From Candidatus Omnitrophota bacterium (GTDB lineage: Bacteria; Omnitrophota; Gorgyraeia; Zapsychrales; Fredricksoniimonadaceae): a stretch of DNA of 64,000 nucleotides. Positions 1 through 62,910 of the stretch are shown in pieces (the first letter of the stretch is position 1; every line of letters begins with the position of its first letter). The notes below the pieces were generated by a model. It ran no database searches and was not told where the DNA came from. It saw only the letters and a program-made list of their open reading frames with translations. The position numbers and the translations under genes are program-made. The DNA is taken from positions 1,192-65,191 of the forward strand of contig CAIOPG010000002.1 in NCBI GenBank assembly GCA_903860135.1, in the 5' to 3' direction.

Positions 1-542
1 ATGATGATGATCACCGGAATACACAAGGAAAAGAAGAAGGCCGCCTTCGCGTTAAGGCTGTACATGAAAACGAGGATCAGGACCAGCGCCAACGCCCCGC
101 GCAAGGTGCTCGATAAAAACTGAGTGAAAAAATTATTGAGCGCCTCGGTATCATTGACAATGTTGGTGATGATGCTTCCCGAGGAATGCTGGTCAAAATA
201 TTTCAATGACAGCCCCTGGATGTGCCGGAAAAGGTCCATCCGTATGGCCCGGACAACAGCCTGCCCGGTCTTCTGCAGGGCAATATCCTGATAGTAGGAA
301 AAGGCAAATGAAAGGATCACCAGCCCAAGATACCCCGCCGCCATCCAAATGACCGCCTGGATATTGGGATGCGCGACAACAATAAAACGGTCAATGGCTT
401 CCTTGATAAGGTAAGGCTGGGCCAGTTCAATGGTTACAACAATGATCACAAACAATAATGACACCGCCACGCGCCACCGGTAAAGCCGAAGGTACGGTAA
501 GAAAATATGGAGCGAACTCTTGTGCCGGGGTTGTTGCCGCAT
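1..542 (-). CDS. ABC transporter permease/ATP-binding protein (exporter type), N-terminal part; 3' end lies beyond the window start
   Basis: Hand translation of the minus strand from the ATG at 542: MRQQPRHKSSLHIFLPYLRLYRWRVAVSLLFVIIVVTIELAQPYLIKEAIDRF...HSSGSIITNIV... This is a typical ABC-exporter transmembrane-domain N-terminus. It lies 12 nt downstream of the MFS gene on the same strand. Confidence 0.6.
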   Translation of the reverse strand, partial: MRQQPRHKSSLHIFLPYLRLYRWRVAVSLLFVIIVVTIELAQPYLIKEAIDRFIVVAHPNIQAVIWMAAGYLGLVILSFAFSYYQDIALQKTGQAVVRAIRMDLFRHIQGLSLKYFDQHSSGSIITNIVNDTEALNNFFTQFLSSTLRGALALVLILVFMYSLNAKAAFFFSLCIPVIII

Positions 543-554
543 GCTGATACCTGA

Positions 555-1850
555 TCACTGCTCGACGGCAATGATCCCCTTCTCAATATAAATCGGCAGG
601 ACCTTGGCTCTCAGTCGCGCAAAACTCTGCCAGAAGATCAATGTTGTCACCAAAGCCAGGCTGCCGCCGATCAAAAACGTGAGTGGCAACCCCAGTGTGC
701 CCGAAGACGCCCCTGCGATCACGCTCCCGACGGGGCCCGCCCCGATCAAAACCGTGCCATACAGGCTCATGATCCTGCCCCTTTTATCTTCCTCAACGAT
801 CGCCTGAAGGATCGAATTCGTTGAAGCCACCTGCATCATGGTCACAAAGCCGACAAGGAAGGACACCCCGGCGGCCAGACGGACATCATGCACATAGCCA
901 AAAGCCATGATAAGAAACCCCAGCCCCGGCAGTGCCACCCCGATATGCCGCCAAAGCCCGCGGATACTCTGTCGCCCTGCCAGGTACAAAGCCGCGCCTA
1001 CAGCACCGATACCAGCGGCCCCAATGATAAGACCGAAAGCTTCCGGCCCGGTGTGGTATTGCTCTTTCACAAAGACCGGCATCAGCGTCTGAAACGCCCC
1101 CTGCAACAGGCTCATGATACCCAGCATCAACAGGAGCGCCCGGATCGGCGAAAACCTGGTGGCATAACGGAAGCCTTCCCCGAGTTCTCCAAGAAAACTG
1201 CCGTTCCCGCCGGGTTTGGCCTGCCCGCGAGGCAACTTGAGGGACAATAGGACCATAACGATCGGGATAAAACTGAAGGCATTCAAGGTAAAACACCAGC
1301 CTTCCCCCACGAGCGCGATCAGGATACCCGCCAGTGCCGGCCCCAATAGCTTTGAAATGTTCATCGCTGATGCATTGAGCGCAATGGCATTGCTCAGATC
1401 GTTCTTGTCATCGATCAATTCCTTGATGAACGCTTGACGGATCGGCAGTTCAAAGGCATTGACGATCCCCAGGAAGAGGCCGAGGCCCATCAGGGTCGCC
1501 GTGTTCACCTTTCCCGTCAGGACAACCGCCGCCAGAAGGCACGCCTGGATCATCAGGCATGCCTGCGCCCAGAAAAGCAACCAGCGCCGGTCATAACGAT
1601 CGGAAAGAACCCCGGCAAACGGCGACAGGACGATCGACGGAGCCTGCGAAGCAAAGGCCACGGCGCCCAGGAGCAATGGCGAATGGGTCAAACGATACAC
1701 CAGCCAACCCATGGCCACCGCCTGCATCCAGGTCCCGATCGACGAAAATCCCCAGGCAAAATAATACCGCCGGTAATTGACATTTTTGAGCGCCCGGAAC
1801 ATCAATTCACGATGCGCATTGGACTGGTTTAATATCTCGCGGATAGGCAT
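555..1850 (-). CDS. MFS transporter (EntS/YbdA-like MFS family)
   Basis: 431-aa ORF with about 12 predicted TM helices. N-terminal motif YRRYYFAWGFSSIGTWMQAVAMGWLVY and loop SDRYDRRWLL are typical of macrolide/enterobactin-exporter-type MFS proteins. Confidence 0.8.
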   Translation of the reverse strand: MPIREILNQSNAHRELMFRALKNVNYRRYYFAWGFSSIGTWMQAVAMGWLVYRLTHSPLLLGAVAFASQAPSIVLSPFAGVLSDRYDRRWLLFWAQACLMIQACLLAAVVLTGKVNTATLMGLGLFLGIVNAFELPIRQAFIKELIDDKNDLSNAIALNASAMNISKLLGPALAGILIALVGEGWCFTLNAFSFIPIVMVLLSLKLPRGQAKPGGNGSFLGELGEGFRYATRFSPIRALLLMLGIMSLLQGAFQTLMPVFVKEQYHTGPEAFGLIIGAAGIGAVGAALYLAGRQSIRGLWRHIGVALPGLGFLIMAFGYVHDVRLAAGVSFLVGFVTMMQVASTNSILQAIVEEDKRGRIMSLYGTVLIGAGPVGSVIAGASSGTLGLPLTFLIGGSLALVTTLIFWQSFARLRAKVLPIYIEKGIIAVEQ

Positions 1851-1853
1851 ACG

Positions 1854-3704
1854 CTATGGCTCTTCTTCCACGCCGGCTGACTGCGCGGCTTCAACTTCCT
1901 GCTCAACCATAAGAATATTCCCCTGCGTCCCGGTCATCGCCGAAGGCGACGGTGCTGGCACGGTGGTATCGCCGGATTGTTTCTGCCACAAACGGGCGTA
2001 AAGCCCCCGCGCCTCTACCAGCGCCTCATGTGTGCCGCGCTCCACAATACGCCCTTCTTCGAGCATCAGGATCTCATCCGCATGCCGGACAGCGCTTAAA
2101 CGATGCGCGATCACGATCGTTGTTTTGCGGTTGAGCCCTGTGGCCATGTCCTGCAAATTCTTCACAATGATGCGTTCGGTCTTTGTGTCCACCGCGCTCA
2201 AGCTGTCGTCGAGTATCTGCAACGGCGCATCCTTGTAGATCATCCGTGCGATGGCAACCCGCTGTTTCTGCCCGCCCGAAAGGCGCACCCCCTGTTCGCC
2301 GATCTCCGTACGGTAACCTTCAGGGAAATGCCGGATATTCTCATCCACGGATGCCACACGCGCCGCCAATTCTGCCCGACCAAGATCAGGCTGAACATCC
2401 GAAAAACCGATATTGTTCAAGACCGACGCTGAAAATAAGAAACCATCTTGCGGGACATAAGCGATCCCCTGACGCAGGCGCAATAAAGGATACCGCAGAA
2501 TATCCTCATCGTCGATAAACAGCATCCCCGGAGCTGGGTCATACAATCTCAGCAATAGATTAGCCAGCGTCGTCTTGCCACTGCCCATGGAGCCGATAAT
2601 GCCGAGCGTCCGGCCTTGCTGAAGATCAAACGAAATATCCGTCAGCACATCCCGATCAGTACCCGGATAACGGAACGTCAGGTTATCGGCCCTGATATGC
2701 CCCCGCACAGGACGATCGCATAAAACTCCCGCCCGGTCCTGTACCGCCGGAACGACGTTCAACAAGGCCGCAAGCCGGTCCAGTGATGCCGCGGCACGCT
2801 GGCCCATATTAAACACCTGCCCGAGATGTTCCAGGGGCATTTTCAACATCATCAGATACAACGTGAAGGCGATCAAATCGCCCAGTGAAATGGCCCCGGA
2901 GATCGTCAGTGATCCGCCATACCCCATGACAATAACAAACCCCAGCGATGCCATGAGCGGGATCAGGGCACTGAAAAGCGCTGACAAGCGCACAAACTTA
3001 ATCTTCTCGTCAACAATCACGTCGACTTTCCGTGCGAACTGATCCAGGGATACAGCTTCATTGCCAAAAGCCTTGACCGCCCGGATCCCGCCGATAACTT
3101 CCTCGACCGTCTGGGCCATCCGGCCAAGGGCCTCCTGGGAACGCGTCGACTGGTGCTTGATCCGGGGCCCCATGATACGGACGATCACCGGGATCATGAT
3201 CAGCGGGCCCAATCCGGCCACAGTCAGGCGCCAATCCATATGCACCGCCATCATGAAAGCTGCCGCCCCCAGCAGTGACACCCCCGCGATCGACACATTC
3301 AACCCCATGGTCATCAGTTCGCGGACCGCTTCGACGTCGCTCAAAGCATGCGACAGAAGATCGCCAATGCTGTGCCGGTGATAATAGCCGGGGGGCATTG
3401 CCTCCCATTTCACAAAAAGATCACGCCGGAGTTTATAAGCCAACAGGCGCCCATGAGAATGGATCAACGTGCGGCCCAGCCAGCCCGCCACCACACGGAT
3501 CAACCCGATCCCGATGATCCACCCCGCACCTACCGCCACATCCCCGGCACCGATAGCACCGCGCTGTAACCTATCGGTCATCAGCCCGATCAAACGGGGG
3601 ATCCACACATTCAGGAGGCTGGACCCGATCAAAAGCGCTGCCCCCATGCTGTAGATCACAGCATATCCTTTGACATGCGCCCCGATGATACGCCAACCCG
3701 ACAT
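1854..3704 (-). CDS. ABC transporter ATP-binding/permease protein (MsbA-like exporter)
   Basis: 616 aa with an N-terminal 6-TM domain. Walker A GSMGSGKTT, ABC signature LSGGQKQRVAIARM, Walker B LQILDDSLSAVD. Confidence 0.85.
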   Translation of the reverse strand: MSGWRIIGAHVKGYAVIYSMGAALLIGSSLLNVWIPRLIGLMTDRLQRGAIGAGDVAVGAGWIIGIGLIRVVAGWLGRTLIHSHGRLLAYKLRRDLFVKWEAMPPGYYHRHSIGDLLSHALSDVEAVRELMTMGLNVSIAGVSLLGAAAFMMAVHMDWRLTVAGLGPLIMIPVIVRIMGPRIKHQSTRSQEALGRMAQTVEEVIGGIRAVKAFGNEAVSLDQFARKVDVIVDEKIKFVRLSALFSALIPLMASLGFVIVMGYGGSLTISGAISLGDLIAFTLYLMMLKMPLEHLGQVFNMGQRAAASLDRLAALLNVVPAVQDRAGVLCDRPVRGHIRADNLTFRYPGTDRDVLTDISFDLQQGRTLGIIGSMGSGKTTLANLLLRLYDPAPGMLFIDDEDILRYPLLRLRQGIAYVPQDGFLFSASVLNNIGFSDVQPDLGRAELAARVASVDENIRHFPEGYRTEIGEQGVRLSGGQKQRVAIARMIYKDAPLQILDDSLSAVDTKTERIIVKNLQDMATGLNRKTTIVIAHRLSAVRHADEILMLEEGRIVERGTHEALVEARGLYARLWQKQSGDTTVPAPSPSAMTGTQGNILMVEQEVEAAQSAGVEEEP

Positions 3705-3748
3705 ACGCTCGACCTTTCGGGAGGGTCACAGCCCTCCCCTGCACACCA

Positions 3749-5029
3749 TTATACTTCCACCTCATGATTAAACAAACGCGCGAGATCTGTATCCGGATGA
3801 ATGCCGCAACGCTTGAAGTCATTGCAGTCAACCCCCAGGTGATACTGCCGGCGAATATCGTGCAACCCCTTTGTCAACCGGATAACATACTCCAGCGACG
3901 GGTGTTTCTGCTTCTGGGCATAGAACAATGATCCCTGCGCCAGGCGCAGGATGTTAGCCGACGTCGTCACGCCATGCCGGGCAAAGAATGCAGCACCTTC
4001 AAAGTTCGACCTCAACGCCGCTTCTTCATCTTTAAATCCGTGTGGCTGTGACAATTCCGCCCCGCACACAAACTGCGAACACACATTGCCTCGCCCGAAC
4101 ACCTCCACTCCCGCGATCGCATTGTTGACCCAATAATCCCAGCCAAAGAATTTCGCTTTCCCGGGGCAAATGATATTGAACAACTGCTTGTCCCAGACTT
4201 CCAGGTGCGGCTCTATGGCCGTCACCCCGGCGTCACGGTAACGCAGGAGCTGGTCTTGAGGCACCGCGCTTGAAATGAGGCGCAGCGGGAACGGACGCTT
4301 CCCGAATACCCGCTGGAGCGTCCGGGACACCTTGATGATCTCCTCGACCTCGCGATCATACGGGCGCTCACCCTGAGGATCCGAACCCACAATGAAGGCA
4401 AAGCTTGTCCAGCGGCCTTGTTCCTTGAGGGCCTCGTTCACCGTCTCATAAATATCCTGCAATGACGCTTCGGTATGCGTCTCGTTCTTGGTGGTGAAAT
4501 TCTGCACAGAGCCGCAATACTGGCAAGCCAGTTTGTGTTTCCAGAAATAGCAATAATTATACACGTTAATGCCTAAAACATTACTGCTCCCGCGCACCAC
4601 CTTGTTCATCGGAATGCCCCGGCTTGTTGTTTTGCCATAAAACTGCGGCACCGGCGTGAAAAAAACAGGTTCAACCTTCTTTTCACCATCCAAAAGCCAG
4701 GCTTTGCCGTCGACAATATCCAGGGTGTACGGATTACCGATGCGCTGAAGATGGTATTTCTTGACGGAGATAGAATCTTCCAGCCCGCGGACGATCGACC
4801 CGTCGCGAAACTGCGCCCCTCCAAAAACAAGCTCACCTTCACCTTTGTCATCTTCTTTTGCTTCCGGTGCCCTGAAAATAGCCCCGTCTTGCTCGGCCTG
4901 TGCCACCGCCGCCGCCGTAACCTGCACCCCGCGGTACGCCGTGTCGAGCTTGATGATCGTGATCCGGGGATAATCAGGATACTTTACTATAAGTTCCTTA
5001 ACACTCAAATCATTTCCTGCCTGACCCAT
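3749..5029 (-). CDS. Hypothetical two-domain protein, radical-SAM-like, with a non-canonical Cx8Cx2C cysteine cluster
   Basis: 426 aa. The central motif NYCYFWKHKLACQYCG spaces its cysteines as C-x8-C-x2-C rather than the CxxxCxxC of canonical radical SAM enzymes. It is followed by FAFIVGSDP (GGE-like) and a segment resembling an alpha/beta-barrel core. The N-terminal domain of about 130 aa is unassigned. The call is uncertain. Confidence 0.35.
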   Translation of the reverse strand: MGQAGNDLSVKELIVKYPDYPRITIIKLDTAYRGVQVTAAAVAQAEQDGAIFRAPEAKEDDKGEGELVFGGAQFRDGSIVRGLEDSISVKKYHLQRIGNPYTLDIVDGKAWLLDGEKKVEPVFFTPVPQFYGKTTSRGIPMNKVVRGSSNVLGINVYNYCYFWKHKLACQYCGSVQNFTTKNETHTEASLQDIYETVNEALKEQGRWTSFAFIVGSDPQGERPYDREVEEIIKVSRTLQRVFGKRPFPLRLISSAVPQDQLLRYRDAGVTAIEPHLEVWDKQLFNIICPGKAKFFGWDYWVNNAIAGVEVFGRGNVCSQFVCGAELSQPHGFKDEEAALRSNFEGAAFFARHGVTTSANILRLAQGSLFYAQKQKHPSLEYVIRLTKGLHDIRRQYHLGVDCNDFKRCGIHPDTDLARLFNHEVEV

Positions 5030-5059
5030 ATAACCTCCCTTTTTCTCAAGTAAAAACTA

Positions 5060-5533
5060 TTAAGCCGCAACCAGTTCTCTGTCCAGGTGACGGAAGAACG
5101 GATGCTTCGTATCTTCCTCAGCCCTTCGCACCGACGGAGTTTCATCCTTGACCGACTCCGGACGAATATACCACAGGCCCGAAAGCTCGGAATCAGGGCC
5201 TTTCCTGGCACGCAATTTCCGGTAATACTCCCGGAACAGATTGCTCACAAAGTCATACCGCTCCACCTTGCCCTTGATCTGATATGACGTGCCATCCCTA
5301 CCTTTAACAGTGATCGCCACATGCTTGTCAAACCACAGGGAATGGATCAGGTTTGAATTGGTGTGCGACGACTCAATGACCTCGGCGTAAACGATCGTGC
5401 CGTCATCGAGAAGATCGATCTTGTGGTTCTTGAACACCACATGCGGATGCCCCTTATCGTCGACCGTCGCCAACACCTTGAATACATCCGGATCTTTTAA
5501 CAATGCTTTTACCTCAGGTGATAAGACACTCAT
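5060..5533 (-). CDS. Pyridoxamine 5'-phosphate oxidase-like FMN-binding split-barrel protein
   Basis: 157 aa. LATVDDKGHPHVVFK...YAEV pattern is typical of PNPOx-like/general stress protein 26 fold proteins. Confidence 0.5.
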   Translation of the reverse strand: MSVLSPEVKALLKDPDVFKVLATVDDKGHPHVVFKNHKIDLLDDGTIVYAEVIESSHTNSNLIHSLWFDKHVAITVKGRDGTSYQIKGKVERYDFVSNLFREYYRKLRARKGPDSELSGLWYIRPESVKDETPSVRRAEEDTKHPFFRHLDRELVAA

Positions 5534-5557
5534 ACAACCTCTTTTCCTTTATTGCGT

Positions 5558-6634
5558 TCATTTAACATTAATATTCCCGTCAACATCATGCGGCGGCCAG
5601 AAGTCTTCAAGCCCCTGCGCCTTGAGCGCCGCGTTCAGGTAACTCCGGTCGACCCACTCATCCACGTCGAATTCCTTGCGGATAAACCCTCTTTCCTTGG
5701 CGAAGGCCACCGCATTTTTGTAGTGCTGGACCGCGAACGGATCCAGCAGAGGATCGATAATCTCCTTAACCTCACGGCCCTCAAGGTCTTCCTTGTAAAA
5801 TGCCAGCGGTGTGCCCGTCATGGCCATGAGCCTCAGCACCTCTTGTCGATTCTCAGGCAAAGATGCCCAGTACGCTGTCTGCACATACACATTCATGATC
5901 CGCTGAATGATCTCCGGGTGTTCTTTGGAAAAACGGTCCAGGACAACCACCTGGCCAAACGCCTTCCAATCGTCGGGCACGCCTTTATCACCGGTACTCC
6001 AGATGAGCCTCGCAAGCCCCTGATTGCGCAGCTTGAGCAAGTTGGTACTGCCGAATAAAGCATCGATCTCTCCTCCCGATAACGCATTATCACCGTCCTG
6101 GCCGGAAAGATTGATCAGCCTGAAATCTTTCTCCTGCAACCCCTGTGATTTGATCAGATTATTAAAAACAAGCTGTGAGGTTGTCCCTTTGGAAATCCCG
6201 ATCTTTTTCCCGCGAAGGTCGGCAATGCTTTTAGCATTCGAATCTTTGGGAACAGCAATATACGCCGACGTCCTTTTGTAACTTGTCGAGATCAAATGGT
6301 GCCGTACCCCGCCAGCCCGTGAAATGATCGCCGGAAAATCCCCATAAGCCCCTATATCCAGCAGGCCATTGGCAAAGGCCTCATTGATCGCCGGGCCAGC
6401 CCCCTTGAACACCGTCCAGTTGATCTTGATCCCGTCAGGCTCGAATTCCTTTTCCAAAGCCCCTTTGGCCAGAACAAGCCCGACCAGATAAATAGAGAAC
6501 GGCTTGCCGTAACCACCGCCCGAGCAACCGAAGCGGATCTCTTTAAGCTTCTGGGGTTCTGCCGATGCCGTTGTGGCCCCGACGGCACTCACAATAAATA
6601 CTCCTGCCAACACCATGCTCCATAACCTTTTCAT
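5558..6634 (-). CDS. ABC-type periplasmic substrate-binding protein, NMT1/SsuA (NitT/TauT) family
   Basis: Signal peptide MKRLWSMVLAGVFIVSAVGATTASA. Binding-protein fold motifs IRFGCSGGGYGKPF and KIGISKGTTSQ, as in aliphatic sulfonate/nitrate/thiamin-precursor binding proteins. Confidence 0.65.
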   Translation of the reverse strand: MKRLWSMVLAGVFIVSAVGATTASAEPQKLKEIRFGCSGGGYGKPFSIYLVGLVLAKGALEKEFEPDGIKINWTVFKGAGPAINEAFANGLLDIGAYGDFPAIISRAGGVRHHLISTSYKRTSAYIAVPKDSNAKSIADLRGKKIGISKGTTSQLVFNNLIKSQGLQEKDFRLINLSGQDGDNALSGGEIDALFGSTNLLKLRNQGLARLIWSTGDKGVPDDWKAFGQVVVLDRFSKEHPEIIQRIMNVYVQTAYWASLPENRQEVLRLMAMTGTPLAFYKEDLEGREVKEIIDPLLDPFAVQHYKNAVAFAKERGFIRKEFDVDEWVDRSYLNAALKAQGLEDFWPPHDVDGNINVK

Positions 6635-6659
6635 ATATACATCTCCTTGTTATTACTGA

Positions 6660-8066
6660 TTAAAAACCATACTGAAACTGCACTAAATATTCGTCATACG
6701 CCGCCCCTGCTACCACGCCCTTGTTCTGATTCGTCACATGATTCACATTCAGCTGAAGCTTGGTGGTTTCGGCGAAAAATATATTCAGCCCCAGCGTCCG
6801 GGTGCCGATCTGGTCATGGCTGACCGTTTTGTTCGGATCCCACTTCTCATAACGGATGAACGGCTGATAGGTCTTCGGATACCAGTCATCAAAGCGTTCC
6901 TGATCCTTGTTCTTCAGGAACTGCTGGCCGAAGTTATAATATCCCGTGAAAATATACCCGTCACTGCGCGTCTGGCGTTCCACGGCGTTGGCTGGCGTCG
7001 TCCCTGTCAAGGTGGGATCAATGCCCTGGGCATATTCAGCGGTAAGGCCGACGGGCATGCGGTTGTACGCCACATCATACCCCCACCTGTTCCTGTTCAA
7101 CCGGCGCGTAAGATTGGTGCTTGTCGATGATGTCACCGACTTCGGTCCGCTCCAACCGGAAACGCCTGCCGACAAACCTCTAAAAATGGAATTGTAATCC
7201 ACCGGCGCGTTCAACCCCACACGCCCGACAAGATCCTTGGACGCATTGTCATCCACCCCGTTACCGCTGGCCACACCCTTGCCGTTAACAACACCAAAAG
7301 CATATTCAACGAGTGGCGCGCGGTAATTGAACGCATAATCTGTCGTCGGCAAAAGATCACCGCGAAAAATGATACCGACGTCACGCGTCCCCAAAGCCAG
7401 GTTCGTATCCGTGAGGGCTGTGTTGATCGTTGGCTTGTATTCATCGCCCGTCTGCGGGTCACGCCCGAAAGGCTTTTTCTGCTGCCCCACCGCCACCGCT
7501 AATAATGGTGTCGATATATCCTTGGTCGCCAGAAAATTATACGTCAGGTAACCGTCGGTCAATAATGGCGCCGCACCATTGGCACTGCTCAACCCGAAAG
7601 CATAATCCAGGTTCTTGCCTTCCTGGTTATCTTTATACAGATTGCCTTTAAACGTCAACCCCACCGATGGCACGCTGAAGCCGTTGCTCGTCGTAGCCGT
7701 TGCGCTGCGCGATACAGTGGCGCGCGTTGTTACGGTGCCACCGAGCGTGAGCGAACGTTTGGTCTGGGCGGTCTTCTTGTCCAAGGTCCTCTGCCACTGA
7801 TCGCGCAGGGTGTCAAGGTCGTTCCTGACACCATCAAGGTCGTTCTGTGTGGCCACCTCCGCCGCAGGTTCCTGTGCCGTAACAGAAAATTTACCCTGCG
7901 CGGTCTTCACCGTCTTTAATTCATCCTTCAAGAACTTAACCTCATCGCGCAATGCCTGCAGTTCTCCTTTTAGATCTGCCAGGTCATCGGCAAATGCCGG
8001 ATCAAATGAATTGGCCAGAAAAATAACGGCCAATAATGCCACGGCGATACGTTTCAACTTCTTCAT
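6660..8066 (-). CDS. Outer-membrane porin (porin O/P-like beta-barrel) with N-terminal coiled-coil
   Basis: Signal peptide MKKLKRIAVALLAVIFLANSFDPAFA. Heptad-rich segment DLADLKGELQALRDEVKFLKDELK. Alternating amphipathic beta-strands, ending in ...QFQYGF (C-terminal Phe is an OMP signature). Confidence 0.55.
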   Translation of the reverse strand: MKKLKRIAVALLAVIFLANSFDPAFADDLADLKGELQALRDEVKFLKDELKTVKTAQGKFSVTAQEPAAEVATQNDLDGVRNDLDTLRDQWQRTLDKKTAQTKRSLTLGGTVTTRATVSRSATATTSNGFSVPSVGLTFKGNLYKDNQEGKNLDYAFGLSSANGAAPLLTDGYLTYNFLATKDISTPLLAVAVGQQKKPFGRDPQTGDEYKPTINTALTDTNLALGTRDVGIIFRGDLLPTTDYAFNYRAPLVEYAFGVVNGKGVASGNGVDDNASKDLVGRVGLNAPVDYNSIFRGLSAGVSGWSGPKSVTSSTSTNLTRRLNRNRWGYDVAYNRMPVGLTAEYAQGIDPTLTGTTPANAVERQTRSDGYIFTGYYNFGQQFLKNKDQERFDDWYPKTYQPFIRYEKWDPNKTVSHDQIGTRTLGLNIFFAETTKLQLNVNHVTNQNKGVVAGAAYDEYLVQFQYGF

Positions 8067-8195
8067 AAGAATCCCTCCCTTATCCTCTATTAATTTGCGT
8101 CTTCTCTATCTATGTCCTGAACTGTTCCCGCCCAACCTTCACGGCAGCGCTGCTTTGTGCTGTGACGCCCAGTTCTTAAAAAAAGAAAAAGGCTA

Positions 8196-8225
8196 AAAAA
8201 ACATCCGGGTCGTCCCGAATATATC
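8196..8225 (-). terminator. Putative rho-independent terminator downstream of the tautomerase gene
   Basis: Minus-strand read UCGGGACGACCCGA hairpin followed by UGUUUUUUUAGCC. Confidence 0.4.
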
Positions 8226-8274
8226 TTTAGCCTTCCAGTTGACTGGTAAAACTAACGCAACTATTTTTGCTACA

Positions 8275-8454
8275 TCATCCCAGGAGGTTGTCCCCCTTGG
8301 CCCAATTTTCCGCGCTATACTCCTCGATCACCAACTGCGTCTTATCCTTGGCCTTGCCCACCACCTTTAACAAGGTATCCGAGAATTCCCTGGCAATGAT
8401 TTGCTTCTGTTCGCGGGTCAATTTCCCAACAAGCTTCAAGTTAATGAACGGCAT
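8275..8454 (-). CDS. 4-oxalocrotonate tautomerase family protein (59 aa; below the ORF-track length cutoff)
   Basis: Hand translation: MPFINLKLVGKLTREQKQIIAREFSDTLLKVVGKAKDKTQLVIEEYSAENWAKGDNLLG. Met-Pro start (catalytic Pro1 after Met removal), about 60 aa, beta-alpha-beta tautomerase pattern. It overlaps the spurious plus-strand ORF 8267..8470. Confidence 0.7.
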   Translation of the reverse strand: MPFINLKLVGKLTREQKQIIAREFSDTLLKVVGKAKDKTQLVIEEYSAENWAKGDNLLG

Positions 8455-8818
8455 AGTTTTCCTTTCCTAAAATAAAAAACCCACTCTATCAGCTCAACCA
8501 GCGATAAGTAGTGGGTTGTCCCGTCTACGCATCAAATCCAATATCACGACCATCTCTACTGAGATGGTAGAAATATACCACACGCAACAAAGTTGTCAAG
8601 AATATTTTTTACACCCGACGACGCTGAAACTATTTATTAATGAAAACATCCTCTGCTCACCCTTTCACCGGAAAAATCTTCAGGTATTCTCCGGCAGGAG
8701 TAACGGATAATATACGCGGGGCTTTTCGACATGTTTAGCGCAAATACTGCGTTCCCTTGATCATTATTGCGGAAATTCCGAATTTATGATATTCTTCATG
8801 GAAGAAAAGGAGATCGTT

Positions 8819-9061
8819 ATGACGATTACATTGACAGGAAAAAATCAGATCACTATCCCTGGAAAATTTGTAAAACACCTCGGACTATCGAGAGGATCAC
8901 TGTTTGACATCCGGCTCAACGGCAACCGGCTGGAACTTGTCCCCATGGAAACCATCGAAAAGACATTCACCGATGAAGAATACCTGAAACTTGAAAACAT
9001 TTTTCAGAAAGAAAAAAATACCGCCAAAAAGATAACATGCGAAAATATCGAAAGGCTCTAA
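8819..9061 (+). CDS. Type II antitoxin, AbrB/MazE/SpoVT looped-hinge-helix family
   Basis: MTITLTGKNQITIPGKFVKHLGLSRGSLFDIRLNGNRLELVP is the SpoVT/AbrB-like swapped-hairpin pattern. RBS AAGGAG lies 8 nt upstream of this ATG. It is 3 nt upstream of the toxin gene. Confidence 0.6.
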   Translation: MTITLTGKNQITIPGKFVKHLGLSRGSLFDIRLNGNRLELVPMETIEKTFTDEEYLKLENIFQKEKNTAKKITCENIERL

Positions 9062-9064
9062 CCC

Positions 9065-9367
9065 ATGCCTTACGAACTTCTTTTGTTATCATCTTTCGAA
9101 CGTGCTATCAAACGGCTTGATCCTAATGAAAAAGCAACGATCAAATTGGCCTTACAAGCACTTTTGATCTATTTCTCGTCCAATAACAATCTTGAAGAAG
9201 CCCAAAGAATAGCACCCAGGTTTTTCTTTAAACAACTGCGCAAGCCATTCTATGAAACTGGTATCGAAGGCAGACTCCGCATTGTGCTCCGTAAAGACGA
9301 CCTGTCATTCTTTGCGATCCTCGCCGGCAATCACGATGATGTCCAACGACTCCTGATGCGAAGCTAA
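9065..9367 (+). CDS. Type II toxin, RelE/ParE superfamily (putative)
   Basis: 100 aa. FERAIKRLDPNEKATIKLAL...GRLRIVLRKDDLSFFAILAGNHDDV matches the RelE/ParE layout (xxKxL motif with C-terminal catalytic region). It follows the AbrB-type antitoxin. Confidence 0.5.
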   Translation: MPYELLLLSSFERAIKRLDPNEKATIKLALQALLIYFSSNNNLEEAQRIAPRFFFKQLRKPFYETGIEGRLRIVLRKDDLSFFAILAGNHDDVQRLLMRS

Positions 9368-9391
9368 AAACACCCTGTCAACAACGACCTT

Positions 9392-10222
9392 TCACAACCC
9401 CCGGCTCCGGCGCAGTTCGTCGTCGGGAACGATCAGGACATTGGGCTTGCCTGAAATAGGGTTTTTGTTCACCACCACGATCGTTTTATAAACTTCTTCG
9501 ATAACCTGGTAATTGATGACTTCTTCGGGGGTTCCCGCTGTAAAAATACGCCCGCTTGACATCAGCGCCATGCGGCTGCAATATTCACTGGCCAGATTAA
9601 GGTCGTGCAAGACCATGACCACCGTCAAATTCATTTCTCTGACAAGCTTCCTTAAAAGATCCATGATCACCACTTGGTGCGTGATATCGAGGTGCGCTGT
9701 TGGTTCATCGAGCAACAAGAGGCGCGGTTCCTGGGCGAGTGCGCGGGCGATCCCGGCCAGCTGACGTTCGCCGCCGCTCAGCTGATTCATCGGCTTGTCG
9801 CGCAAACGCAGTGAATCCGTCAACGCCATGCTCTTTAAGGCCACCGCGCTATCCTGCGCTGACTCCACAAACTGCATATCTTTAAAATACGGCAACCGGC
9901 CTAAAAGGACGAACTCCTCGACCGTCAGATCAACCACCGGAAGGACCTGTGCCACCACCGTGACCTGACGCGCCAGATCACGCCCGGGGATAGCCGCAAG
10001 CCTCTGCCCGTCAAGGATGATCTCCCCAGCCATAGGCCTGATCGCCCGTGACACGGCGCGCAGCAACGTGGTCTTGCCTGAACCATTAGGACCGATAAGC
10101 CCGAAGAATTCACCGCGCTGAACATCAAGATCAACGCCGGAAATAATGGTTTTCTTCCCATAACCACAGGCAAGCCCGGTGACCTTAAGCATGTTCAGCG
10201 CCTCCTTTTTTAGCAAGCGCAT
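9392..10222 (-). CDS. ABC transporter ATP-binding protein, FecE/FepC/BtuD-like (iron-siderophore/cobalamin importer ATPase)
   Basis: Walker A GPNGSGKTTLLRAVS, signature LSGGERQLAGIARAL, Walker B LLLLDEPTAHLD. The likely true start is the internal MLKVTGL. Confidence 0.85.
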   Translation of the reverse strand: MRLLKKEALNMLKVTGLACGYGKKTIISGVDLDVQRGEFFGLIGPNGSGKTTLLRAVSRAIRPMAGEIILDGQRLAAIPGRDLARQVTVVAQVLPVVDLTVEEFVLLGRLPYFKDMQFVESAQDSAVALKSMALTDSLRLRDKPMNQLSGGERQLAGIARALAQEPRLLLLDEPTAHLDITHQVVIMDLLRKLVREMNLTVVMVLHDLNLASEYCSRMALMSSGRIFTAGTPEEVINYQVIEEVYKTIVVVNKNPISGKPNVLIVPDDELRRSRGL

Positions 10223-11189
10223 AAATAAAAATACTCCCGCCCACGATCCCGGTGATCACACCGACAGGCAGTTCCAGCGGCGCGATGACGACGCGTGCCA
10301 GGGTATCGCTGGCAACCAGAAAGATCGCCCCTCCCAAGAAAGACGCCCCCAGCAATATCCGGTGATCCGTGCCGACGAGCCGCCGCATCACATGCGGCAC
10401 CACAAGTCCCACGAACCCGATCATCCCGGCCATGGACACGCAAATCCCGGTCAGGATAGCGCAAAATATAAAAAGGATCTTTTTCACCTGTTCAACAGGG
10501 ATCCCCAAATGGCGCGCCTCTTCTTCGCCGAGCGCGAGCGCATTCAGCGGCAGGCAGAACGCATAGCCCGTCGCCAATGCCGCAAAGGCAAGGCCAAGCA
10601 TGAAGTTAATAAATGAAATATCCGCCCCGCCCAATGACCCCATCATCCAGAACACAATGCCGTGCAGGCTTTCACTGCTGGCGATCGACATCAGCAGCAT
10701 GACCAAGGACGATGCGATAAAACTGATCATGACCCCATTCAACAAAAGCCCCTGCAGTTTGACAGGCCCGGTCCTAAGACTCGAGAAATAAAGGAACACG
10801 ATGACCGCCCCTGCGCCGAGCAACCCCGACACCGGCAAGGTATATGCCCCAACAGCGGAAATGCCCAGGGCAATATTGGCCGCCACCCCCAGCGCCGCCC
10901 CGCCGGAAATACCCAGCGTATATGGCTCAACCAGGGGATTACGGAAAAGTCCCTGCAGGATCACCCCTGCCAGGCTCAGACAACCGCCAATGGCAAGTCC
11001 CATCAGAATACGCGGCAGGCGGATATCACAAATGATGCTGTGCTCCACCGGGCTCCCACCCTGGAGCAGGATACCGATCACTTTCCCCGCCGGAATACCC
11101 GAAGCTCCAACGGACAATGACCACACGATCACCCCCGCCAAAAGCACGATCAAAAAGCCAAGCCAGGATGCCCAGTGTGTGTATTTCAT
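10185..11189 (-). CDS. FecCD-family ABC importer permease (BtuC-like)
   Basis: 334 aa, about 9-10 TM helices, typical FecCD/BtuC profile (LLLNGVMISFIASS..., GIVGGSIFIYAL). Confidence 0.85.
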   Translation of the reverse strand: MKYTHWASWLGFLIVLLAGVIVWSLSVGASGIPAGKVIGILLQGGSPVEHSIICDIRLPRILMGLAIGGCLSLAGVILQGLFRNPLVEPYTLGISGGAALGVAANIALGISAVGAYTLPVSGLLGAGAVIVFLYFSSLRTGPVKLQGLLLNGVMISFIASSLVMLLMSIASSESLHGIVFWMMGSLGGADISFINFMLGLAFAALATGYAFCLPLNALALGEEEARHLGIPVEQVKKILFIFCAILTGICVSMAGMIGFVGLVVPHVMRRLVGTDHRILLGASFLGGAIFLVASDTLARVVIAPLELPVGVITGIVGGSIFIYALAKKGGAEHA

Positions 11190-12022
11190 GATTTAATCTC
11201 CGGATGTACATACCCCATGATCACCTTGAGCGTCTCCACAAAACTTACCGGCGTGGGACTGCACAGCAAATACTCATCCAGGATATTGATCCTCTTTTCC
11301 GTCACGACCTTAAGCGAGCTGAACCGTTCCCAGTTCACCTTCTCGCGCGCCCCGTCAAAACCCATGCTCGAGATCAGGATCACATCCGGAGCTTGCTTAA
11401 GCACCATCTCACGGGAATACTGCACATAGCCCTCTTCCGTCACAATATTCGCCCCACCCGCCATCGTAATAAGGTCGTTCACAAAAGCCCCCTGGCCGAT
11501 CGTAACCAGCGGATTCACCCCCACCTGCACAAACACACTCACCTTCTTCACCGCCTTCAGGCTCGATGTTAAAGCAACAACCTTTTGCCGGGAAGCCGCG
11601 ATGATCGCTTCCGCCTCTTTGTCCCTGCCAAGGATCTGCGCCACCATTTTGAACACTTCACACACCCCGTTAAAATCCCGGGCATTGGGCACATCCACCA
11701 CCTTGATCCCAAGGCTCCGCAATTTCTCTTTAGCCCGGGGATCCGTCAACACCGTCGACAGGACAAGATCCGGCTTTAACGCCACGACCTTTTCAATATT
11801 GATATCCTGGATACTGCCAACGCGCTCTTTCAACTTCGCCGCTTCCGGCCGCGTGCAATACGTCGTCACCCCCACCAGCCGGTCTTCCCCGCCAAGCAGA
11901 TAAATTTCCTCCGTCAACACCGGCCCCAAAGAAATGATCCTCTCCGCCAATTTCTCCTGCGCCTGCGTAAGCGGGTAAAAGAATAATGAAAAAATTAAAA
12001 CCAACGTCCAATTAAGCTTCAT
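11186..12022 (-). CDS. Periplasmic binding protein of iron-siderophore/cobalamin ABC importer (BtuF/FecB-like)
   Basis: Signal peptide MKLNWTLVLIFSLFFYPLTQA. RIISLGPVLTEEIYLLGGEDRLVGVT motif, as in BtuF-type class III binding proteins. Confidence 0.75.
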   Translation of the reverse strand: MKLNWTLVLIFSLFFYPLTQAQEKLAERIISLGPVLTEEIYLLGGEDRLVGVTTYCTRPEAAKLKERVGSIQDINIEKVVALKPDLVLSTVLTDPRAKEKLRSLGIKVVDVPNARDFNGVCEVFKMVAQILGRDKEAEAIIAASRQKVVALTSSLKAVKKVSVFVQVGVNPLVTIGQGAFVNDLITMAGGANIVTEEGYVQYSREMVLKQAPDVILISSMGFDGAREKVNWERFSSLKVVTEKRINILDEYLLCSPTPVSFVETLKVIMGYVHPEIKS

Positions 12023-12135
12023 TGAAAATAATCGTTTCTACTTTTAAGGATTGATCTGAACTTTAGTACCAATTGGCAATATGCCGTACAATTCTTCTAC
12101 ATCCTGATTATCCAATGCCACGCATCCCCATGTCC

Positions 12136-12161
12136 AATCTTTGCGTGAATCTTTGCGTGAA
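12136..12161. repeat. Perfect 13-bp tandem direct repeat AATCTTTGCGTGA x2, about 115-140 bp upstream of the binding-protein gene start
   Basis: Read directly from sequence: aatctttgcgtga aatctttgcgtga. Confidence 0.6.
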
Positions 12162-12263
12162 CCTTTTCCATGAATTCATATCAAAATCCTTTTTTATGCA
12201 CATTCTTCATAAAACTTTTGACACTATCTTGCCAATCATGATTAGCCCTTTTTACCCAAAAGG

Positions 12264-13247: not shown

Positions 13248-13273
13248 TAGTTTATAGTTTATACTAAACTATA
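13247..13273. promoter_or_regulatory. Candidate operator: tandem ATAGTTT heptads plus a perfect 9-bp inverted repeat TATAGTTTA-tac-TAAACTATA in the upstream region of the HTH-PRTase gene
   Basis: Seen in sequence. The 13-mer TATAGTTTATACT recurs at 19691..19703, directly upstream of giant gene 1. Confidence 0.35.
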
Positions 13274-13332
13274 CCTCATGTGTCATAAGTATATCCAAAG
13301 ATCAGCAATAAGTCAATGCGGACAACCCGGCA

Positions 13333-14547: not shown

Positions 14548-14604
14548 GACGTTGTCCTCTCATCGCTTATCCCTAACAGCACGGCGGATGTTCCCGATTA
14601 CTGA

Positions 14605-15603: not shown

Positions 15604-15714
15604 AGCCTATTCCTTTTCATTATCGACGAGGTTATGCCTGAAACCTGCGCTTGATAATAGGCGAAATCCAGGAAACCCACAATAACTTTCTTTCTGATCC
15701 GCAAGCATAATAAT

Positions 15715-15757
15715 ATCAAAAAAGACGGCGTTGATCCGATTTCTGGACCAACGCCGC
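15715..15757 (-). terminator. Rho-independent terminator downstream of cysK
   Basis: Minus-strand 8-bp stem CGGCGTTG/CAACGCCG with a 15-nt loop, followed by UCUUUUUUGA. Confidence 0.5.
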
Positions 15758-15809
15758 ATTCAAACTAACACATTCAATCATGCCACGCAGGCATAGTCTT
15801 CAACACGCC

Positions 15810-16745
15810 TTACGCCTTGATCTCCTGGAAAAGCCAGGTTGACAGATAGCGCTCGCCGGTGTCCGGCAGGACCACAACGATCGTCTTCCCTTTGTTTTCA
15901 GGACGCTTAGCGACTTCGAGTGCGGCCCAGGCGGCAGCACCGCTGGAAATGCCGACGAGGATACCTTCCTGTACGGCAAGTTGGCGTGCGGTGGCACCGG
16001 CATCATCGGTCTTGACCTGGATGATCTCATCGACGATCCCGGCATTAAAGATCGCCGGCACAAAGCCCGCGCCAATGCCCTGGATCTTGTGGGGCCCTGG
16101 CTTCCCGCCGGACAACACCGGGGAATCAAGGGGCTCGACGGCAATGGCCTTGAAGCCAGGCTTGCGCTTCTTGAGGACCTCTGAAATACCCGTGATGGTG
16201 CCGCCGGTTCCAACACCCGCGACCAGAATATCCACCTTGCCGTCGGTATCATTCCAGATCTCTTCAGCCGTTGTCTCACGGTGGATCTGGGGATTAGCCG
16301 GATTGGCAAACTGCTGTAATAAAACCGCATTCGGCGTCGCTGCAGCCAATTCTTCAGCTCTGCGCACCGCCCCCTTCATGCCCTCAAGTCCGGGGGTCAA
16401 TACCAACTGCGCCCCGAAGATCCCCAACAGCTGACGACGCTCGATCGACATGGTCTCGGGCATGGTCAGGATCAGTTTATACCCCTTGGCCGCCGCCACG
16501 AACGCCAGCGCAATGCCCGTATTGCCACTCGTTGGCTCGACGATCACAGAATCCTTGTTCAAGACGCCGCGCTTCTCGGCATCCTCGATCATGGCCAACC
16601 CGATACGATCCTTGACGCTCGACAAAGGATTAAACGATTCTATCTTCGCCAAGACTTCAGCGCTCGCCCCTTCGGCAATGCGGTTCAGGCGGACCAGCGG
16701 TGTCCGGCCGATCGTTTTGGTAATATCACTAAAAATAGCACCCAT
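15810..16745 (-). CDS. cysK: Cysteine synthase A (O-acetylserine sulfhydrylase)
   Basis: 311 aa. [16 protein letters not shown] with PLP-Lys, [10 protein letters not shown] and GTGGTITG motifs. Confidence 0.9.
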
Positions 16746-16782
16746 GTTGTTCTCCTTCCGATGATGTTATTGAAAATACCTG

Positions 16783-18096
<1,314 letters not shown>

Positions 18097-18143
18097 TTAG
18101 CTTTTTAATCCTACCATTATCCCACTTGCCCATAAAACATTCC

Positions 18144-18347: not shown

Positions 18348-18392
18348 TGCCGTGTCGCCATCTAATTCCCACTAACCCTATCGGGATTATGG

Positions 18393-18421
18393 AAATATAC
18401 CATGCCATACGCTTTTGTCAA
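18393..18421 (-). promoter_or_regulatory. Putative sigma70-type promoter for yezD-metY-cysK
   Basis: Minus-strand TTGACA-17 nt-TATATT about 45 nt upstream of the yezD start. No S-box or SAM riboswitch was recognisable. Confidence 0.3.
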
Positions 18422-62388: not shown

Positions 62389-62910
62389 TCAATACTGGAT
62401 AGCAGAAAAGACCGGAAGGTTTCCAAGCTTGGTGCGCCCATTCAAAAAAGAAAGTTCGATGATGAACCCGACACCCTCGATCCGCGCTCCGGCATCCGCC
62501 ACAAGCTTGACCGCCGCGGCAACGGTACCACCGGTAGCCAAAAGGTCGTCAATGATGACAACCTTATCCCCTTCCTTAAGGGCATCGGCATGGATCTCAA
62601 GGGTGTCTGTGCCATATTCCAGATCGTATGTAACCGTGCGCGTCCTGGCGGGAAGTTTCCCTTTTTTACGCACAGGAATAAAGCCAACCCCAAGCGTGTA
62701 CGCCAGCGCCGTTCCAAAAATAAAACCACGCGATTCAATGCCAACCACATAAGCAATATCTTTGCCGGCAAACGCATGCGCCAGGCTGTCAACCGCCGCC
62801 TTAAGGGCATCTTTGTCCTTGAGCAGAGTCGTAACATCCTTGAACACAATACCTTTTTTCGGAAAATCAGGAATATCGCGGATAAATTTTTTAAGGTCTA
62901 TTTTTGTCAT
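62389..62910 (-). CDS. apt: Adenine phosphoribosyltransferase
   Basis: 173 aa. FPKKGIVFKDVTTLL and PRPP loop VVIIDDLLATGGT. Confidence 0.9.
   Translation of the reverse strand: MTKIDLKKFIRDIPDFPKKGIVFKDVTTLLKDKDALKAAVDSLAHAFAGKDIAYVVGIESRGFIFGTALAYTLGVGFIPVRKKGKLPARTRTVTYDLEYGTDTLEIHADALKEGDKVVIIDDLLATGGTVAAAVKLVADAGARIEGVGFIIELSFLNGRTKLGNLPVFSAIQY

Follow-up and report, generated by a model that had tools for sequence, protein, structure and literature searches.

At the beginning of a 64,000-nucleotide stretch from the genome of a Candidatus Omnitrophota bacterium, referred to here as the window, lie seven minus-strand genes which may well form the core of a locus for acquiring sulfur from organosulfur compounds. 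In the order of transcription they encode an OprO/OprP-type porin, an SsuA-family periplasmic binding protein, a PNPOx-like split-barrel protein, a variant radical S-adenosylmethionine (SAM) enzyme, a first half-transporter of an ATP-binding cassette (ABC) exporter (ABC1), an MFS_3 transporter of the major facilitator superfamily (MFS), and a second ABC half-transporter (ABC2) which continues past the window start. The window derives from a 399-kb scaffold (ENA ERZ18667937, BUCK21-1 scaffold_1). An earlier reading of the same DNA, called the original prediction below, had described these genes as one tightly packed run, with gaps of 3-44 nt, behind a terminator following a tautomerase gene. 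All seven open reading frames (ORFs) are present in the window sequence where they had been placed, and the gaps, recomputed from the coordinates, are 25, 24, 30, 44, 3 and 12 nt. The short gaps and the unbroken same-strand run bear out the operon-like packing. The tautomerase gene (8275..8454) is set apart from the porin gene by a terminator-like hairpin followed by seven T residues (8222..8201, -), and no convincing terminators were found between the seven cluster genes. Pfam and NCBIfam scans agree with the family labels of the cluster genes, the porin being the one which lacks a direct Pfam match.

The radical-SAM enzyme is encoded at 3749..5029 (-) and has 426 residues. It matches the NCBIfam model NF045502, 'variant_rSAM', with 176.6 bits against a cutoff of 125, and resembles TIGR04043, the MSMEG_0568 family, only distantly (E 2.4e-15; 56 bits against a cutoff of 304). 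Both models are called merely 'radical SAM protein', with no function attached, and no curated NCBIfam family of known function was matched. The protein had been singled out as an unusual radical-SAM-like enzyme, and this description holds: its score against Pfam PF04055 is 25.0 bits, under the cutoff of 29.5, and its cysteine motif is a variant one. Cys160, Cys169 and Cys172, spaced C-x8-C-x2-C and not C-x3-C-x2-C, are invariant in alignments of 23 and of 60 homologues, and the same spacing is kept in distant radical-SAM paralogues. A fourth cysteine, Cys288 within the sequence 'CPGK', is invariant among the 23 aligned homologues and kept in 90% or more of the 60.

An AlphaFold (AF2) model of the enzyme (pLDDT 88.5) has the TIM-barrel fold, partial or full, of the radical-SAM superfamily. 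When it was compared with the PDB using Foldseek, the best 50 of 66 matches at E<=1e-3 were all radical-SAM enzymes, LipA included, with PylB, ThiH, HydE, HydG, BioB and NosL as the top neighbours (10-18% identity, query TM-score ~0.4). A profile search of PDB sequences retrieved biotin synthase alone, weakly, and no close solved relative. Since these best matches are solely radical-SAM enzymes whilst close solved relatives are lacking, the enzyme is, as modelled, a radical-SAM protein of the small-molecule BioB/ThiH-like structural class without a characterised close relative. The enzymes of this group are full or three-quarter TIM barrels which act on small molecules. Several of them perform C-C or C-S lyase chemistry, and the neighbours ThiH, HydG, NosL, HydE and BioB are all enzymes of small-molecule lyase or C-S chemistry. 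The window enzyme differs from the group in its C-x8-C-x2-C motif and in an extra N-terminal domain of ~130 residues. We propose, from sequence and gene context, that it is a candidate O2-independent C-S cleaving enzyme.

The family is large. A HMMER scan of 1.84 billion representatives returned 2,046 clusters (50%-identity) with E<=1e-3, of which 366 reached E<=1e-30, and 234 relatives were found when GTDB species were scanned, each represented by a single genome. The carriers span many phyla and are overwhelmingly anaerobic or facultative; they include Geobacter, Chlorobium, Accumulibacter, Magnetospirillum, Azospirillum, Telmatospirillum, Treponema primitia, Desulfitobacterium, Clostridium tyrobutyricum, C. 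luticellarii, Lachnospiraceae, Nitrospirota and others. In the literature, no relevant study was found of the radical-SAM/split-barrel family or of a radical-SAM desulfonase.

Directly upstream lies the gene for the split-barrel protein (5060..5533, -; 157 residues). It scores 32.8 bits against PF01243, PNPOx_N, for which the gathering cutoff is 28.1, and 32 of 50 members of its family match this model at E<=0.01. The label 'FMN-binding protein' that it had been given is thus right as to fold class, PNPOx-like, whilst the binding of flavin mononucleotide (FMN) is not borne out: the solved matches of the family are marginal, comprising the heme-binding HupZ (E 3.5e-4, over ~50 residues) and a COG3576 flavin protein.

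The remaining two genes of this half of the cluster encode proteins with the marks of uptake components. The porin (6660..8066, -) has 468 residues, with a signal peptide, an N-terminal coiled coil and a C-terminal ...QYGF. Its assignment to the Porin_O_P type comes by way of relatives, as a Pfam scan at E<=0.01 gave no direct match. It is 57% identical to a porin from another Omnitrophota locus, L004 (L numbers denote loci fetched for comparison), which itself matches PF07396, and 61% identical to the porin of L003, which matches Porin_O_P at E 8.8e-12. We take the OprO/OprP family to be anion-selective. The binding protein (5558..6634, -; 358 residues, with an N-terminal signal peptide) matches Pfam NMT1 (E 3.8e-18) and the SsuA family model TIGR01728 (E 4.9e-41). 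Its best match in the PDB is SsuA 3uif (E 4.8e-59, residues 53-349), followed by E. coli SsuA 2x26 (E 1.4e-14) and SsuA 3e4r (~1e-14), Xanthomonas SsuA being among these. The membrane parts of an importer are located on the same contig, 2.5 kb past the window start and downstream of ABC2, where a second NMT1-type solute-binding protein (SBP), an MFS_1 transporter, two BPD_transp_1 permeases (SsuC-like) and an ABC_tran ATPase (SsuB-like) follow one another.

The original prediction had asked whether the neighbourhood is conserved amongst homologues of the radical-SAM protein. It is strongly so for the porin, binding protein, split-barrel and radical-SAM genes and for the ABC pair, and it is not for MFS_3. 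From the best 80 of the 234 genome matches, 79 loci were fetched, giving 66 anchor loci; the counts that follow are for 64 non-redundant loci. ORFs in the fetched loci were called crudely and then clustered, and an operon-like run was taken as genes on the same strand with gaps of <200 nt. The split-barrel gene lies in the radical-SAM run in 43 of the 64 loci and is directly adjacent in 41, which suggests that its product is a near-obligatory partner of the radical-SAM enzyme. Other members of these runs are an NMT1 SBP (30 loci), an ABC ATPase (28), an SsuC-type permease (26) and the SAM synthetase MetK (18). Amongst 141 other genes in the runs, the most frequent Pfam family by a wide margin is MetK (19), followed by MFS_1, GNAT, B12-radical-SAM, ResB, HGD-D/BcrAD, Cys_Met_Meta_PP, thiamine diphosphate (ThDP) enzymes, ThiF and PALP.

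The closest homologues (76%, 61% and 53% identity; L003 and L004 included) share the order porin, NMT1 SBP, radical-SAM gene, PNPOx-like gene, sometimes a second radical-SAM gene, MFS_1, two SsuC genes and SsuB. In L004, a metagenome-assembled genome (MAG) of the Omnitrophota, this arrangement is flanked by genes for sulfite reductase, siroheme synthesis, a CymR-like Rrf2 regulator, an OscA-like 'sulfur starvation response' protein, a PALP enzyme and MetK. More widely, CysK is among the neighbours of the radical-SAM/split-barrel pair, and genes for O-acetylhomoserine sulfhydrylase (MetY-like), rhodanese-like and NifH-like proteins and ThDP enzymes recur there. Rfam searches of seven Firmicutes and Spirochaete loci placed SAM riboswitches on the flanks of the pair, none of them leading it directly; in Clostridium luticellarii they flank it, and in C. 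tyrobutyricum they are close by. Furthermore, the pair is adjoined in two Rhodocyclaceae by a genuine SsuD, which scores 582 bits against TIGR03565 (cutoff 518). In such facultative organisms this is the pattern to be expected of aerobic and anaerobic enzymes with the same function, if the pair is indeed a desulfonating one.

A second line of evidence is provided by the composition of the encoded proteins. A low content of sulfur amino acids is a recognised mark of proteins synthesised when cells are starved of sulfur. With initiator Met excluded throughout, the window median for Met plus Cys is 3.5%. The split-barrel protein contains neither residue (0 Met, 0 Cys; 0.0%), the porin has 1 Met and 0 Cys in 467 residues (0.21%), and the binding protein has 4 Met, one of them in the signal peptide, and 1 Cys (1.4%). 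The radical-SAM enzyme has 1 Met and 8 Cys, four of these Cys being conserved. A phosphoribosyltransferase gene at 62389..62910, unrelated to the cluster, encodes a protein without Met or Cys. Because the sulfur content of single proteins is noisy in this way, only the family-level statistic is used here as evidence. The family medians for Met and Cys, respectively, are 0.0% and 0.0% for the PNPOx-like proteins, 0.83% and 0.29% for the SBPs, 1.0% and 1.56% for the radical-SAM proteins and 0.25% and 0.25% for operon-linked MetK, as against 1.63% and 1.14% for the other ORFs of those loci. Met is lower in the PNPOx-like, SBP and radical-SAM families with Mann-Whitney p values of 2e-21, 2e-11 and 1e-11.

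The composition of the operon-linked MetK suggests a dedicated SAM synthetase isozyme for sulfur starvation. Sulfur-poor MetK copies occur directly upstream of the radical-SAM gene in L014, L020, L024, L050, L056, L060, L065, L074, L076, L078, L080, L081 and others. In the window itself, two assimilation enzymes are encoded 8-10 kb upstream of the cluster, outside the seven-gene coordinates. Cysteine synthase A (CysK; 15810..16745, -; TIGR01139, 475.9 bits against a cutoff of 351) has 4 Met and 0 Cys, and an O-acetylhomoserine/O-acetylserine sulfhydrylase (MetY-like; 16783..18081, -; TIGR01326, 670.5 bits against a cutoff of 495) has 2 Met and 0 Cys in 432 residues. Judged by composition, both look like sulfur-starvation isozymes. 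Both genes are on the strand of the cluster, and the first ~18 kb of the window thus form a sulfur-assimilation island.

These results bear on the function that had been proposed at the outset, small-molecule 'biosynthesis or export' or the export of a modified metabolite; the radical-SAM protein would then be a tailoring enzyme and the ABC and MFS proteins would export the product. A radical-SAM gene beside three exporter-type genes in a tight same-strand run does recall such a system. The conserved partners, however, are an SsuABC-type importer and sulfur-assimilation genes, the porin and periplasmic SBP indicate uptake, and the cluster proteins carry the sulfur-starvation signature. It had also been suggested that precursor-peptide ORFs be sought in the intergenic gaps, which at 3-44 nt are too short for any. 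Amongst the seven genes, Pfam and NCBIfam detected no SPASM or RiPP recognition element (RRE) domain, no precursor peptide and no scaffold enzyme, and the structural neighbours of the radical-SAM enzyme are small-molecule lyases rather than the SPASM/RRE maturases of ribosomally synthesised and post-translationally modified peptides (RiPPs). A biosynthesis-and-export function is thus quite improbable.

The exporter genes themselves form the other half of the cluster. ABC1 (1854..3704, -; 616 residues) consists of a transmembrane domain and a nucleotide-binding domain (TMD-NBD; ABC_membrane and ABC_tran), and the part of ABC2 in the window (1..542, -) comprises the N-terminal 180 codons of a protein which has 589 residues on the source contig. 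The Walker B motif of ABC1 is degenerate (LQILDD, with the catalytic Glu lost), whilst that of ABC2 is canonical (ILILDE). Two TMD-NBD genes, one with a degenerate site, are what defines a heterodimeric type IV ABC exporter, and the two proteins had rightly been taken for a probable heterodimer. In these features they resemble YheI/YheH, CydDC and exporters of the TM287/288 type, and one orthologue of the window pair bears the source name 'YheH'. Unlike those systems, the window orthogroup recurrently sits in sulfur islands, and in the window the pair is split by MFS_3 (555..1850, -; 431 residues; PF05977, 198 bits). The latter is EntS-like at the family level only, scoring 119 bits against a cutoff of 324 for the EntS equivalog model NF007792.

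When neighbours were counted within +/-6 genes of the radical-SAM gene, the exporters did not look like conserved partners. With ABC2 as the anchor, the ABC pair proved to be conserved after all, whilst MFS_3 remained non-conserved. ABC2 orthologues fall into >120 clusters at 60-76% identity. Five neighbourhoods were sampled, from a Geobacteraceae contig, a groundwater contig, Chlorobiaceae, Geobacter sp. GCA_000813145.1 and one further metagenome contig, and all five contain an adjacent pair of orthologues (ABC1' 59-64% and ABC2' 61-69% identical) inside a sulfur island. A Chlorobiaceae locus of the first scan (L063) has the same arrangement, giving 6/6 loci in total, and ABC1 orthologues stand beside ABC2 orthologues in the sulfur islands of L100, L102 and L104. 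Taken together, the islands contain NMT1 SBPs, SsuC/SsuB, PNPOx-like genes, NifHDK-like genes, CysA/CysW, cysteine-synthase-like PALP enzymes, Rrf2 regulators and OscA-like DUF2292 proteins, although no island holds all of these. They also contain C-x8-C-x2-C radical-SAM paralogues which are 25-30% identical to the window enzyme. Since the orthologues sit in sulfur islands in the five sampled neighbourhoods and in L063, the ABC exporter pair is, on this comparison of gene neighbourhoods, a recurrent accessory of sulfur islands across Chlorobiaceae, Geobacteraceae and others.

The islands vary in content. Those of L104-L108, L063 and L100 have up to three tandem Cx8Cx2C radical-SAM paralogues, several NMT1 importers and NifHDK-like genes of the Isr/Mar type, and some of them also have BcrAD/HGD-D genes (2-hydroxyacyl-CoA-dehydratase-like). 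In L107 a stand-alone protein of 148 residues (5642-6088) adjoins the ABC pair; it is 30% identical to the window radical-SAM enzyme over 115 residues and may be a split-off radical-SAM domain.

In none of the other loci, across the five sampled neighbourhoods, does an MFS gene lie between ABC1' and ABC2'. The origin of MFS_3 is suggested by a close relative, L089, in which (at 815-4727) the MFS_3 gene begins only 20 nt after the ATPase gene of a Peripla_BP_2/FecCD/ABC_tran importer. A BtuF/IsdE-like importer of the same type lies upstream of the cluster in the window, and the components of the two correspond closely (BP2 84%, FecCD 88%, ATPase 79% and MFS_3 69% identity). In the window genome the sulfur module and ABC1 are placed between the FecCD-type importer and MFS_3 (555-12022). 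From this gene order, MFS_3 between the ABC genes is a lineage-specific insertion from the adjoining FecCD-type operon. L089 lacks ~7.5 kb between importer and MFS_3. On the opposite strand of the window at 8786-9367 (+), between the FecCD-type importer and the tautomerase gene, are an ORF for a MazE-like antitoxin (91 residues) and a partner of 100 residues; this ORF pair is at one edge of the ~7.5 kb and may mark an insertion boundary.

Thus the seven-gene run is an evolutionary mosaic in which an MFS gene has intruded upon two conserved parts, the sulfur module and the accessory ABC pair, a view which follows from the position of MFS_3 with the FecCD-type importer in the relative and from the integrity of the ABC pair elsewhere. 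A more sceptical explanation is that the mosaic is one of chance, with the uptake and enzyme genes functionally unrelated to the three exporter-type genes, which might for example serve drug or metallophore efflux. The membership of the L089 MFS_3 orthologue in a Peripla_BP_2/FecCD/ABC_tran operon is consistent with this, as is the fact that the exporter proteins are not sulfur-depleted (about 4% Met plus Cys). The GC content differs along the cluster, being 56-59% over 500-4500 and 50-52% over 4500-7000, and exporter genes are rare within +/-6 genes of the 66 anchor loci. The presence of ABC1 and ABC2 orthologues in the sulfur islands of all five sampled neighbourhoods and of L063 argues in the other direction, and we consider a wholly fortuitous association unlikely.

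The interpretation to which these observations lead is that the cluster is the core of an organosulfur acquisition locus of the sulfur-starvation type in an uncultured diderm anaerobe, in which C-S bonds would be cleaved independently of O2 for sulfur assimilation. It is one in which we place about as much belief as doubt. It draws on the conserved porin/SsuA-like/split-barrel/radical-SAM module near an importer and sulfur genes, on the depletion of Met and Cys, and on the recurrent ABC pair. The substrate would most likely be an alkane- or other sulfonate, as judged from homology and gene context.

A number of observations weigh against this interpretation. The substrate, the products and the cofactor of the split-barrel partner are all things that we infer from sequence. 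A sulfonate ligand is itself in doubt since the binding protein, at 140.8 bits, misses the curated TIGR01728 cutoff of 163.5 bits, and it may bind something other than an aliphatic sulfonate. The SsuC/SsuB importer is not contiguous with the binding-protein gene in this genome. The phosphoribosyltransferase described above shows that low sulfur content also occurs outside the cluster. No sulfur-responsive regulator was found in the window, and Rfam detected no riboswitch or other RNA family in window 1-20000 at E<=0.1. Finally, the closest homologues in Nitrospirota and Elusimicrobia (44-49% identity) have ResB/CcsA-like neighbours and no SsuABC, and the radical-SAM proteins in this context have 3-11 Met, as against 1-4 in SsuABC-context loci. 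Because these homologues lack SsuABC and are not Met-depleted, the radical-SAM family is probably not uniform in function. In five such loci (L009-L011, L013 and L016; Nitrospirota, Elusimicrobia and one Proteobacteria MAG) the radical-SAM and PNPOx-like genes are found with ResB- and CcsA-like (heme-handling) and B12-radical-SAM genes.

The latter association, in Nitrospirota, raises the question of whether the cluster might serve the anaerobic uptake and degradation of heme or another tetrapyrrole for iron, in the manner of ChuW/HutW with the split-barrel HutZ/HupZ. HupZ is the best solved match of the split-barrel protein, and the window encodes a BtuF/IsdE-like FecCD-type importer just upstream. 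The match to HupZ, however, is a marginal one of ~50 residues, the cognate SBP is SsuA-like and not heme-binding, the radical-SAM enzyme is not HemN/ChuW-like, and most loci show a sulfur rather than an iron context, with a depletion signature that fits sulfur starvation. Heme degradation by analogy with ChuW/HutZ was rejected for the window on the SsuA-like SBP, the sulfur context and the marginal HupZ match, and is very improbable as an account of the cluster. Salvage of thiamine or hydroxymethylpyrimidine (HMP), which the NMT1/THI5 name might suggest, was also rejected, there being no thiamine pyrophosphate (TPP) riboswitch by Rfam, sulfur genes as neighbours and an SBP which matches SsuA.

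If the cluster is a sulfonate-sulfur locus, a working mechanism can be proposed by analogy with the products of SsuD and TauD and with the chemistry of radical-SAM dehydrogenases and lyases. The anion-type porin would admit the organosulfur compound to the periplasm, where the SsuA-like protein would bind it, and the system beyond the window start, with two SsuC, SsuB, the second SBP and MFS_1, would import it. In the cytoplasm, a 5'-deoxyadenosyl radical generated by the radical-SAM enzyme would take H from the carbon bearing the sulfonate. The split-barrel partner would handle the electron, either as acceptor and returner for the substrate radical or as a sulfur-free reductant of the [4Fe-4S] cluster. 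The resulting 1-hydroxysulfonate would break down to an aldehyde and sulfite without O2. SAM would be used stoichiometrically and the methionine released would be re-adenosylated by MetK, a demand that would account for the frequent presence of a sulfur-poor MetK in the operon. Sulfite would then be reduced and fixed by the sulfur-poor CysK and MetY. The heterodimeric ABC exporter would probably expel the desulfonated carbon skeleton or sulfite, and an importer role for this exporter fold is also conceivable.

The most direct challenge to this scheme accepts that the locus serves sulfur starvation and holds that the radical-SAM/split-barrel pair performs chemistry other than sulfonate desulfonation. 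It might act on thioethers, sulfones or sulfoxides, sulfate esters or S-alkyl-cysteines, salvage sulfur from by-products of SAM, or be a sulfur-sparing replacement for a sulfur-rich enzyme. The sulfur context and the depletion signature leave the chemistry unspecified, and the multiple paralogous radical-SAM enzymes and SBPs per island suggest many substrates. The Mar/Isr-type nitrogenase-like genes which co-occur in islands act on thioethers or isethionate (PMC13474568), the structural neighbour HydE attacks a thioether sulfur, and the linkage to MetK could mirror SAM or methionine metabolism itself. Set against this are the solved relatives of the SBP, the best of which are SsuA, the SsuC/SsuB-like importer, the SsuD which adjoins the pair in facultative Rhodocyclaceae, and the OprO/P-type porin, the presumed anion selectivity of which suits anionic sulfonates. 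We regard some other sulfur chemistry as a serious contender, albeit a distinctly doubtful one.

On the preferred reading, that of sulfonate-sulfur acquisition, the nearest known counterparts are SsuEADCB and TauABCD of E. coli and Pseudomonas. These systems share with the window locus an SsuA-family SBP, an SsuC/SsuB-type importer (encoded apart from the SBP in the window genome), a context of sulfur starvation and proteins poor in Met and Cys, and the products of SsuD and TauD, an aldehyde and sulfite, are those proposed here. No match to an SsuD or TauD oxygenase or to an SsuE reductase was obtained amongst the seven genes using Pfam and NCBIfam; the window locus has the Cx8Cx2C radical-SAM enzyme and the split-barrel protein in their place. 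Systems of the window type further differ in occurring mainly in anaerobes and in having a dedicated OprO/P-type porin and an ABC exporter pair. On its gene content, the most fitting description of the locus is that of a putative sulfonate-sulfur utilisation variant in which the oxygenase has been replaced by an uncharacterised radical-SAM enzyme.

Cleavage of a C-S bond by O2-independent radical chemistry has a precedent in the isethionate sulfite-lyase IslA/IslB and related glycyl-radical sulfonate lyases, which release sulfite and involve a radical-SAM protein (PMC6453916; PMC11423573). In those systems the radical-SAM protein is the activase of a glycyl-radical enzyme, whereas in the window it would itself be the catalyst, and no glycyl-radical enzyme domain was detected amongst the seven genes or the flanking ORFs that were scanned. 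The role of IslA/IslB is respiratory, whilst that of the window locus is likely to be assimilatory. The nitrogenase-like IsrBHDK (isethionate reductase) and MarBHDK (methylthio-alkane reductase) are closer in purpose, as they too acquire sulfur from organosulfur compounds under anaerobic conditions with SsuABC-type uptake; Isr requires SsuABC (PMC11423573). Genes of this type share islands with Cx8Cx2C radical-SAM/PNPOx genes in Chlorobiaceae, Geobacter and Clostridium tyrobutyricum. Most radical-SAM/split-barrel loci, by contrast, are without nitrogenase-like genes. In the case of the window, no NifHDK-like genes were detected by Pfam within ~10 kb of the cluster on the contig (L001/L087) or amongst the scanned subset of window ORFs. 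Furthermore, IsrB is BciD-like (PMC11423573) and not of the window radical-SAM family, and a 2026 review of nitrogenase-like systems makes no mention of the radical-SAM/split-barrel pair (PMC13474568).

In the 2024 description of IsrBHDK, the known O2-independent desulfonating enzymes are given as Xsc, IslAB and Isr (PMC11423573). It is attractive to consider that the Cx8Cx2C radical-SAM enzyme and its split-barrel partner represent a fourth, unrecognised O2-independent desulfonation system. This would be a stand-alone radical-SAM 'sulfonate lyase' which serves anaerobes of many phyla in general alkanesulfonate-sulfur assimilation, as SsuD and TauD serve aerobes, equipped with a sulfur-poor MetK for SAM recycling, an ABC exporter for by-products and a sulfur-responsive RNA attenuator, a tentative proposal which we regard as rather less than probable. 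Sulfonates are a major environmental sulfur pool, and work of the 1990s reportedly showed that anaerobes such as Clostridium can draw their sulfur from sulfonates in the absence of oxygen. To our knowledge, all the general desulfonating enzymes (SsuD, TauD and MsuD) require O2, and Xsc, IslAB and Isr are all specific for C2/C3 hydroxy- or oxo-sulfonates. Being widespread, tied to SsuABC-type importers and sulfur-poor, the pair is a testable candidate for the missing anaerobic route. Such a function would have a bearing on sulfur cycling in anoxic environments, on the production of sulfite and H2S in the gut and on the anaerobic fate of sulfonated xenobiotics, and would assign a role to the NF045502 'variant radical SAM' family.

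The candidate attenuator is located upstream of the porin gene, where two conserved non-coding elements flank a small ORF. The latter (8275..8454, -) encodes a protein of 59 residues belonging to the 4-oxalocrotonate tautomerase family (PF01361, E 1.3e-10), which apart from its initiator contains neither Met nor Cys. In L004 the corresponding position is taken by the OscA-like gene, and the two ORFs are unrelated. Element 1 (8470..8527, -) is a leader hairpin with a terminator (GTAGACGGGACAACCCACTAC...AGTGGGTTTTTT); a strong sigma-70-like promoter precedes it at 8599..8572, and an alternative upstream pairing is possible for the 5' arm of the terminator. A 12-mer of this element, ACGGGACAACCC, is shared by the window only with L004/L015 among 108 loci, and when all fetched loci were searched for the leader motif it turned up nowhere but in the window contig and in the locus from Omnitrophota. 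Element 2 (8190..8245, -), between the small ORF and the porin gene, consists of a small hairpin followed by the terminator-like hairpin described above and its T-run. Neither element has a match in Rfam. Both also flank the small ORF in L004, at 6843-6895 (element 1) and 7133-7200 (element 2), and comparison of element 2 in the window and in L004, two independent sequences, reveals one compensatory stem change, from CGGG/CCCG to CUGG/CAGG. From their position and structure, the two elements may constitute a sulfur-responsive attenuator.

Several other genes of the window are mentioned for completeness. Between the FecCD-type importer and an aminotransferase gene, an ORF of 327 residues at 12264-13247 (-) has a sulfur content of 1.5% and matches no Pfam or NCBIfam family. 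At 19710-24845 (+) a protein of 1711 residues is encoded, the sole Pfam match of which is a C-terminal PPDK_N domain. Its gene is convergent with, and overlaps by 47 nt, that of an AcrB-family pump of the resistance-nodulation-division (RND) type (24799-28053, -), after which a CusB-like membrane-fusion gene with a heavy-metal-binding domain is found at 28155-29024 (-).

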